From assembly GCA_045805065.1 (NCBI GenBank), contig JBJMMA010000176.1, positions 1-26,891 on the forward strand: a stretch of 26,891 bases of DNA, given 5' to 3'. The notes below the pieces were generated by a model. The model did not search any database. It saw only the letters and a program-made list of their open reading frames with translations, and was not told the DNA's origin. Shown here one piece after another: positions 3,343-6,300 of this stretch. The stretch comes from Bdellovibrionia bacterium (GTDB lineage Bacteria; Bdellovibrionota; UBA1018). The first letter of the stretch is position 1. Each line of letters begins with the position of its first letter. A program made the position numbers and the translations under genes.

Positions 3343-6300
3343 CACATCAATTTCTCTCTCAGATTTTCGGAGATGCATTTGCTCGAAGCCTGATCCGACT
3401 TCCGCCACGTTTCTCCACGTTCAAAAGCCTTGCGGAGGTTTTTAGCTGTTGGATCAGCTCCACGCGCTAGTCGGCGCAACTCGGGATCATCCTTCCATCG
3501 GGGCTGACTGAGGACATAATTGAGATCCGACTCGAGCATTCCGTAAGGGCGCTTCACGATAGTCTCAAGCCATTCCGGACGATCCTGTGCCCGAGGTGGA
3601 GTAAGAAATGTATAAGCAATCGCTCTATCGGCTGTTCCCTTTTGAAGCAACTTTTCAATCCACTCAGGATGCTTGTCCCATTCGGGACTTGTCATAAAAC
3701 TAAAGGCAGTGAGGCTATCCATAAGCCCATGCTCAATGAGCGAAGAAATCAACTGAGGATGAGATTGCCAATGAGGTTGATTGAAAACGTACTTCTTTAA
3801 AGTGCCTTTTGTATAGCTCTTATGAATGAGTTTCTCCAGAAGCTTCGGATGACTTCCCCAATGAGACTGCGAGAATACATGTTCCGCAAGTGGATCGTAA
3901 TATCTACTGTCTCCTGTTTTAAACAAATGCTCAATCCACTCGGGATGATTAGCCGCACTGGGTTTGGAAAGCACATTTTCGATAATCAAACGATTGATGC
4001 TAAAATCATTCCTCCGAAGAAACGTTAACACTAAGTCTCCGTAGTCCACCCAATGATCTTGCGAAAGCACGTGTTCAATCACTTCTCGATCAATGCTCGT
4101 ACCCTTGTTCATCAATTTTTGGAGGTATTCTGGATACTTTCGCGACACCGGCATCGCGAACCATTCCTTAAGTACAGCCGAAGCGGTCAGTTTTTTTACC
4201 CTTTGAACCTCGGCCCCCACGATCTGCCTAATCTGTTCAATTTCTTCGTTGCTTGAGACCTGGAGTTTCGCTCCAATGCGGCGCCTTAACTTCTCCAAAA
4301 TAGCGCCGTCACTGGCTTTGAATTCGTTTTGCGCAAGCAACTTAAAATACTCAACGGGACTCACATTGAGGCTCTCAGGAATCACTTTCAATGCCGCTTT
4401 ATTTGTTACCAAGATGTAGTCGCCCTGATTTGCCCGATGAAAATCAGAGCCTTCGCGTGCCTGAGGATCAAGTCTGAAGCGAATCGTCAGACCTGTGCCC
4501 ACCGCTCCTTCTCGACCTACCTTAGTATAAAATCCATCACCAAATGCCGCGCCCTCACCTTCAAATCCTTCGCGAGAGATCAAAACGTTGGGATCACCCG
4601 TGTGAGCTCTTGTGATGCTCTCGTAAGCAAGGAAGCTTTTGGTCTCATGTGCAACGGTATCCAGACCCAGCTCTTTTGCGGTTTTTCCTGGTCCTTGGCC
4701 AATCGGTTTTGTTCTCAGTGGTTCTTTACTCATCCACCAAGCCAAGGACTCCGCCGTTTTGACATCACCTTTGAAGTCCTGAAGCTTCTTCCTTAGACCA
4801 AGCTTTTCAAGTGTGTCCCACGCGTACTCGATATTTACGGCGTTTTGAATGAGCTTCTTGCCGTTCTTTTCGATCCATTTTGCGACATAGTCATTTTTAG
4901 CCGTCTGACTCAGATCGAATTCTTGAATGATTTTTTTGATGAGTGCGAGATCCTCTGGCCTAATCTTCAGCTCATACTGAAAGGCTTTCGTGAGAAAGCG
5001 AATCGCCGACACAATCGGAGGGTTACGTCCTTCCTTAGCGAACTTTGTCGTTTCGTGCTGTGTAGAAAAGTAATAGTGAAGAGCTCCGTCGTGAACATCC
5101 TTGAGAAAATGAGGCTCTTTAGAATTCCAGTCTCTTACATCTCTCACGGCCAACTCCCCTGATCTAGGCTGAGTGATCTCGATCATTCCCGTGGAGTTAG
5201 AATCCGTGTGCTGATTCATGAAGTCGGGATTATTTAAAATTGCCTGCTTATCTCCCATGTCTTGAGTCAGAAGACGAACTTCCCATGCCGTCTTGTTACC
5301 CTGGAGGTGAGGATATTTCGCCTGAAGCGCCGCTTGAAGTTTCGCAGCCTGTTCAGGATTGCCATCGATGACGATGTCTAAATCTTGGGTTGAGCGGTAG
5401 ATATTTGTATAGTCGTAATCAAAGCGATCTTTCTGAAAACGCGGATCACCTTTCTCACGCAGCATGTCCCATTTCACATAATGGGCATATCCAGCCGCAG
5501 TTCCACCAAAAAGCCATGCCCGCACTCCAAGCTTCGAGGCCTCTTGCTTGATGAACTTAAACTCTTCGACGCGACTGAGTCGAAACCCAATTTCACTCTC
5601 CAAAGATTTTAATGACGGAGTTGACTGAGAAACATTCACCTCGACTTTTGGCTCATGCGAAAGAGACTTTTCTGTGCCAGTATGAACCGTGCTGTTCTGC
5701 AGAAGTTCCATTTCGAGTGCAGGTTTTTCTTTCGGCGAAAGCTTAACTTCTTGCGCAGGCGCTGCTTCCGCCTTGGGTTCAACCTCAGGTTTCGATTTCG
5801 CTACTTCACGTGGAGTTGGATCCGAGATTGCGCCTTTTAGCTCAAGCGCGATTAAAGCTCTTTTTGCGCGATTGGATTCATAAATGGCATTGAAGAAAGC
5901 AATATTGGCTGGCTTACTCTTGATGTCCTTGACCATCAGATCAAAAGCGCTCGACGAAGCTTGAGCTCCATCGCGAAGAGCTGTGAGCTTCTTGACCAGA
6001 ATGTCCTGAAGCTCGGATGTTTTTCCTGCTTCATAGAGCTTTAGCTCTGAGGCGCTCAGAGGAACTTTAAGTTTTCCATACTCCGAGTCAAACGTCGCGA
6101 AATGCAGAACTGCCGGAGATCCGGGACTGGTTTCTTTGACGTATTGAAATGCCCACGGCTTTTTCTCGTGGATGAGTGCAAGAAAGTGAAAAAGCTGAGA
6201 GGTCAGGCCTTGCGCCACTTCCTCGCCATGTTGAGCAACTTCTCGAATCAGTGACAGATTGCTTGCGATTTTCAATCCCGCGTTTTTATTCCCGAGGAAC

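Follow-up and report, generated by a model that had tools for sequence, protein, structure and literature searches.

ADP-ribosyltransferases (ARTs) of the H-Y-E clade, which includes PARP and diphtheria toxin, carry an H-G-[ST] motif on strand 1 and a G-x-G-x-Y motif on strand 2. A minimal version of the ART fold, assigned to the H-H-h clade, forms the C-terminal lobe of Tpt1/KptA that binds nicotinamide adenine dinucleotide (NAD+), and in these proteins it is accompanied by an N-terminal winged-helix RNA lobe with an R-H-R-R catalytic tetrad. Here we describe a pair of paralogous genes in a 26,891-nucleotide stretch of DNA from a Bdellovibrionia bacterium (contig JBJMMA010000176.1; the whole stretch is called the window, and its positions are used throughout). 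An original prediction, made from the letters and open reading frames of the window, had placed in the first gene a PARP/diphtheria toxin-class domain fused to a nucleotidyltransferase (NTase), with the His and Tyr of the catalytic triad present and a residue other than Glu in third place. Structure models now show a predicted divergent, minimal, six-stranded ART fold directly after a class II NTase resembling CCA-adding enzymes. Fold and fusion are thus both found, but the third residue is not a conserved feature.

No class II NTase-ART fusion is described in those parts of the literature that our search covered, PMC7824862, PMC12522546, and a 2026 ParA preprint among them. Nor is this Bdellovibrio-type family described in the literature covered.

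Results

Gene 1 is a single open frame (window 3342-6950) with the product P0001, and the neighboring frame (1414-3408), gene 2, encodes the paralogue P0002; both genes and all features described within them are on the minus strand. Window positions 4380-4670, to which the ART-like domain had been assigned, translate to P0001 residues 761-857, LGLDTVAHETKSFLAYESITRAHTGDPNVLISREGFEGEGAAFGDGFYTKVGREGAVGTGLTIRFRLDPQAREGSDFHRANQGDYILVTNKAALKVI, and contain every motif quoted for them. The motifs quoted for the paralogue are likewise present in P0002, as IAHDTK (His383), DGFYT (Tyr423), and HDFVVVKNKAAI (Asp459). As delimited by models, fold searches, and conservation, the complete ART-fold domain of P0001 spans residues 746-875 (4326..4715) and follows the head and neck of the NTase (residues 450-745; 4716..5603). 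That part has the fold of a class II, CCA-adding-enzyme-like NTase together with its glycine pair, GG482-483 (5502-5507), and its carboxylates, D523-x-D525 (5376-5384), with an insert of about 40 residues read from the sequence between the two motifs. Gene 2 repeats the arrangement: a class II NTase part (residues 64-359; 2332..3219) with 65% identity to the gene 1 core, GG at 3115-3120, and DLD at 2989-2997 precedes an ART-fold domain (residues 360-488; 1945..2331) whose motifs span 2005-2262, with His383 encoded at 2260-2262, Tyr423 at 2140-2142, and Asp459 at 2032-2034.

The ART fold on which the original prediction staked itself is present in a model of the 446-residue core built from a 119-sequence alignment (predicted local distance difference test [pLDDT] score, 93.9; predicted template modeling score, 0.92). 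It appears there as a split six-strand beta-sheet with a helix after strand 1, the features by which the ART superfamily is defined. Modeled in isolation from 23 sequences, the domain scored lower (pLDDT, 79.7) and kept the same secondary structure as in the core. In model numbering, strand 1 (residues 22-27), which carries His768, leads into a helix (30-37) and a long loop (38-62); strand 2 (63-68) carries Tyr808; and strands 3 (78-84), 4 (94-96), 5 (102-105), and 6 (111-113) precede a final helix (122-132).

Fold searches pointed the same way. Foldseek returned no PDB match at an E value of ≤0.001, the best being 0.18; despite these values, the top rows were PARP14, -16, -2, -10, -12, -4, and -1, Arr, and KptA, which places ARTs first in the comparison with PARP, Arr, and Tpt1 that had been proposed as a check. 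In a second fold search, 49 of 50 rows were ARTs, and the lowest root mean square deviations, 3.0 to 3.2 Å over approximately 79 residues, belonged to Tpt1/KptA structures. Against BFVD the best E value was 0.01, and the named rows include a mycobacteriophage ADP-ribosyltransferase, PARP catalytic domain proteins, and an ART-PolyVal-like protein.

Conservation was counted over 244 aligned family sequences. His768 (codon 4647..4649), in the H-E-T motif of strand 1, is His in 242 of them, and Tyr808 (4527..4529), in the G-x-G-F-Y-T motif of strand 2, is Tyr in 242; Gly806 is kept in 241 and Thr770 in 234. The two motifs match the His and Tyr motifs of PARP and diphtheria toxin, except that the middle residue of the first is Glu rather than Gly. 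The predicted His and Tyr are therefore genuine family features and not chance. Several residues absent from the original list are equally constant: Ser792 and Arg793 (codons 4572..4577; 242 of 244 each), Glu799 (4554..4556; 243 of 244), a candidate replacement acid in the G-E-x-A loop before strand 2, and Asp836-Phe837 and Asn850, which are kept in all 244.

The third position behaves differently. Asp844 (codon 4419..4421) stands just before strand 5, at the site of the catalytic Glu of H-Y-E enzymes, which we take, by counting back from the ends of the aligned ranges and assuming no gaps, to coincide in diphtheria toxin, PARP1, and PARP10 with model residue 101. Only 125 of the 244 sequences have Asp here; the others have Asn (38), Glu (18), Ser (12), Gly (11), a gap (10), Lys (9), His (7), Thr (6), or another residue (6). 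The residue differs even between paralogues of the source genome, and the preceding loop shows insertions and deletions. Because it is not conserved, Asp844 cannot, on the alignment, be an essential catalytic residue.

Sequence comparison recognized neither domain. Pfam and NCBIfam found no NTase or ART family in whole P0001 or P0002, only DUF1462 at an E value of 0.16, and Pfam gave no match to the isolated domains at an E value of ≤10. The PARP family PF00644 matched none of 23 domain sequences at ≤10 and none of 51 full-length representatives at ≤0.05. Six single-member PHROGs families came up for the 23 domains, none significantly (best E value, 0.039), and PADLOC reported nothing. Sequence and profile searches of the PDB (phmmer and profile) yielded only weak designed-ankyrin (DARPin) and helical-repeat rows, which fall on the C-terminal repeats, plus GyrB rows at E values of 0.43 to 0.68. 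A profile-profile comparison with KptA, proposed earlier as a check, did not bear out a relationship: hhalign gave a probability of 0.07% for the domain alignment against Escherichia coli KptA alone and of ≤0.4%, whether in local, low-mact, or global mode, when the target was an alignment of 87 KptA sequences. A likeness to KptA seen by eye in strand 5 of a distant subfamily (G-V-x-W-L-N-G versus G-V-W-L-T-S) was dropped, as hhalign did not support it. The Tpt1/KptA family PF01885 had no match in the source genome and 151 phylum genomes (controls matched in 3), and Tox-ART-HYD1 (PF15633) had none in 301 phylum genomes, the source genome included, so neither family supplied sequences for comparison. 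However, hhalign also missed the NTase, with a probability of 0.18% for the core alignment against E. coli Cca, so the failure of sequence searches to find the ART part counts for little. Two weak leads point toward an ART, as the fold searches do: a PF15633 match in 1 of the 23 domain sequences (16.1 bits; E value, 0.018), below the gathering cutoff of 25 bits, and feature look-alikes in the Atlas at 0.90 to 0.91 that include PARP (16% of members) and Tox-ART-HYD1 (71%) clusters.

The fusion is the rule in a sizeable family. A search with P0002 found 440 proteins at an E value of ≤0.001; names and organisms were taken from the best 120, among which the named ones are nearly all "hypothetical" and two of the relatives listed are labeled Bdellovibrionales and Deltaproteobacteria. 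The core of about 425 residues is 45 to 67% identical among 122 proteins and starts approximately 20 to 100 residues from the N terminus in most relatives, P0001 with its extension of about 400 residues being an exception. A profile built from just the ART-like part matched 513 clusters (50% identity level) at an E value of ≤0.001, 445 at ≤1e-10, and 300 at ≤1e-30. In the best 150 of the 513, the domain nearly always lies some 320 to 400 residues in, after the NTase; the 68 weakest clusters (E values of 1e-10 to 1e-3) fall outside this view. When a stand-alone domain was sought among proteins of 72 to 258 residues, 15 matches were found, none with a Pfam domain; judged by length and by partial coverage of the query, they resemble truncated members of this family.

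Copies are numerous within genomes and patchy among them. The source genome (4.2 Mb in 262 contigs, 94% complete) has 27 core matches, about 19 of them full length, and a genome of the same genus (G263) has up to 40 first-look candidates; in the phylum sample, matches occur in 19 of 301 genomes, belonging to 18 of 170 genera. Some copies in the source genome form tandem arrays of three or four genes, with overlaps of a few bases between neighbors and a signal peptide at the start of each, on contigs C247 (27.8-37 kb), C188 (24.7-30.6 kb), and C7 (10.4-16.6 kb) (L031-L033); housekeeping genes flank all three arrays. A strongly hydrophobic N-terminal window is present in 156 of the 187 members that start with Met and have the core near the N terminus; on these signal-peptide-like N termini, the family is predicted to be Sec exported. 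Five soil or rhizosphere DNA runs contain 13 to 32% of sampled words, and no RNA sequencing run containing them was listed. These DNA runs and the two organism labels are consistent with a soil relative of Bdellovibrio as the source.

What follows the core varies. At Pfam cutoffs, 51 representatives carry FGE-sulfatase (8), ankyrin repeat (6), or HEAT_2 (2) modules after it, 1 of the 51 scores above the cutoff for a RasGEF-like family, and none matches an NTase or ART family. In the window, gene 1 ends in a variable module of C-terminal helical repeats, defined by repeat register (3345..4325; about eight copies), and gene 2 has its repeats at 1417-1944. The units are approximately 30 to 36 residues long with the signature P-x-W-x-x-H-P-E-(L/W), and those of gene 2 have a weak DARPin match (best E value, 0.0011). 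A search for tandem-repeat DNA gave nothing relevant.

Distant relatives separate the two halves of the protein. Among five distant matches from other phylum genomes, four were aligned with the window proteins. Two of these, L027:874-2712 (minus) and L028:713-2590 (minus), have lost GG (NE and GE), DxD (K..N and N..T), and part of the NTase core and keep the His, Ser-Arg, Glu, and G-[F/Y]-Y of the ART-fold domain. The other two, L029:924-2813 (minus) and L030:880-2946 (minus), show the reverse: GG and DxD are kept, His has become Leu or Met, Ser-Arg has become TR (L029) or PD (L030), GFY has become SFL or is deleted, and Glu799 has become Ala in L029 and cannot be aligned in L030. Both retain Pro829, Asp836-Phe837, and Asn850. 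Over the whole set of 244 sequences, both motif sets are kept in 223, 17 are N-terminal fragments, 2 have a dead NTase with His and Tyr intact, and 2 have an intact NTase but no longer the His and Tyr. The joint loss of His, Ser-Arg, Glu799, and Tyr leads us to read them as probably forming one functional site, although the sample is small; Pro829, Asp836-Phe837, and Asn850 are more likely structural. On the same small sample, in which L027 and L028 look like one lineage, the site does not appear merely to serve the NTase center.

The fifth match, L026:898-4434 (plus; contig G103:C27), a protein of about 1,180 residues with a related NTase, shares 26 to 29% identity and keeps GG and D-V-D; by eye, with no folding done, there is no recognizable ART-like stretch after its neck. 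Three genes of this type lie on one contig.

Gene 1 (3342..6872) likely starts at a GTG codon at 6870-6872 (residue 27), giving 1,176 residues. The Atlas record of P0001 also begins at residue 27 and reads MRPYIGNVLVILGVLLAQSIGFAADSS from there, a start that looks signal-peptide-like, and a Sec signal peptide is predicted from the sequence at residues 27-50 (6801..6872). The extension of about 400 residues that follows (5604..6800) is specific to this paralogue and has no Pfam or NCBIfam match and no Atlas look-alike. Gene 2 (1414..3342) likely starts at the ATG at 3340-3342 (Met23), giving 642 residues, and the database record P0003 is likewise 642 residues long. From these likely starts, both proteins open with a hydrophobic signal-peptide-like stretch. 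The gene 1 stop codon and the gene 2 ATG share one base as TGATG (window 3340-3344), an overlap because of which the two paralogues are probably translated as a coupled pair.

Small exported proteins are encoded on either side of the pair (905-1486 and 7003-7758, both minus). Neither has a Pfam match, and because both are single copy in the genome they are not conserved family partners; a partner or immunity gene conserved beside family copies was sought and not found. The surroundings are otherwise ordinary chromosome, with genes for a GAF protein, endonuclease V, a TamB/Omp85 pair, a sigma-54 activator, L17, and RpoA. In the pair, a TamB-like gene (810 residues) adjoins an Omp85-family gene (612 residues) at window 10490-14760 (minus), in what looks like an ordinary translocation-and-assembly module.

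Discussion

The predicted fold, the motifs, the intact GG and DxD of the NTase, the export signals, and the architecture are compatible with a model to which we give about an even chance: these proteins are exported bifunctional effectors in which the ART domain binds NAD+ and, lacking the canonical Glu, transfers one ADP-ribose unit, and the NTase works separately. NAD+ binding, catalysis, and targets are the parts of this model that we infer. According to it, His768, Tyr808, Ser792-Arg793, and Glu799 would form an NAD+-type pocket, a second site independent of the NTase center. Transfer without the strand 5 Glu could proceed by either of two routes. Glu799, as a relocated acid, or Arg793 might substitute from the loop before strand 2, or a phosphate or acidic group of the substrate might act as the nucleophile, as in Tpt1/KptA or Glu-less PARPs. 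The NTase would act as a separate CCA-like nucleotidyl transferase, and the variable C-terminal modules, whether ankyrin, HEAT, FGE-sulfatase, or novel, would choose the target, possibly nucleic acid ends or proteins of prey or neighboring cells.

A bolder version, which we consider doubtful, makes the family a new class of two-headed effectors that predatory Bdellovibrio-like bacteria export, with the NTase and the Glu-less ART acting on the same target. Prey RNA or DNA ends might, for example, be capped with ADP-ribose and tailed with nucleotides, and each of the dozens of paralogues per genome could be aimed by its own C-terminal repeat module. If true, this would add a new ART clade, a new catalytic arrangement, and a new weapon of predation or competition.

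Among the alternatives, the one that survives best, tentative as it is, holds that the ART-fold domain is noncatalytic. It would then be a binding module of the NTase, the sole enzyme, perhaps with a retained nucleotide- or NAD(ADP-ribose)-binding pocket, or a substitute for the helical body and tail of CCA enzymes. A domain that only serves the NTase would not be expected, however, to keep its His, Ser-Arg, Glu, and G-[F/Y]-Y in L027 and L028, whose NTase residues are gone, nor to hold seven polar residues in at least 242 of 244 members. Known pseudo-PARPs, moreover, have usually lost His and Tyr.

We find it unlikely that the proteins are NAD+-consuming toxins, glycohydrolases or phosphorylases like Tne2/Tse6 or RES/MbcT, that deplete the NAD+ of a target cell. 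Fold matches to such enzymes score no better than those to PARPs or Tpt1. No conserved immunity gene accompanies the family, the small genes flanking the window pair being single copy and the arrays being bounded by housekeeping genes, and C-terminal binding modules that vary from protein to protein are easier to reconcile with modification of specific targets than with wholesale destruction of NAD+. Very improbable is a reading in which a small beta-rich fold resembles an ART by coincidence, or through an artifact of the predicted model, and the conserved His and Tyr have some unrelated role.

Both folds are well known individually, yet both are undetectable by sequence in this family. If the ART domain of our favored model is active, it would add a clade that works without the strand 5 Glu, link ADP-ribosylation and nucleotidyl transfer in one exported protein, and give a testable way into the question of which products uncultured predatory-type bacteria secrete in such numbers.

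Compared with class II CCA-adding, A-adding, and poly(A) polymerase NTases, the NTase described here has no helical body or tail, bears a signal peptide, contains the insert of about 40 residues, and is recognized by neither Pfam nor hhalign against E. coli Cca. The ART-fold domain resembles the NAD+-binding lobe of Tpt1/KptA in its minimal fold, but its second signature position is Tyr rather than His, a class II NTase rather than a winged-helix RNA lobe precedes it, the protein is predicted to be exported, and PF01885 is unmatched; we place it outside Tpt1 because there is neither a profile match nor an RNA lobe. It shares the His and Tyr of the H-Y-E clade, in contrast to which it has no conserved strand 5 Glu (position 844 is Asp or Glu in only 143 of 244 sequences), has Glu in place of the Gly after His, lacks in the model the helix with a second Tyr, and is partnered with an NTase rather than with PARP regulatory or toxin translocation domains. 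Lacking a conserved acid and a PF00644 match, it falls outside that clade too. Tox-ART-HYD1, known from the Rhs toxins TreX and TreTu, gives a signal below the cutoff, which leaves the domain outside this family as well; its Asp is not conserved here, and the domain is not the C-terminal tip of a polymorphic toxin with an immunity gene. The most fitting description of the domain is that of a new ART-fold family, as yet unnamed, marked by an H-Y-x signature together with S-R and G-E-x-A motifs of its own.
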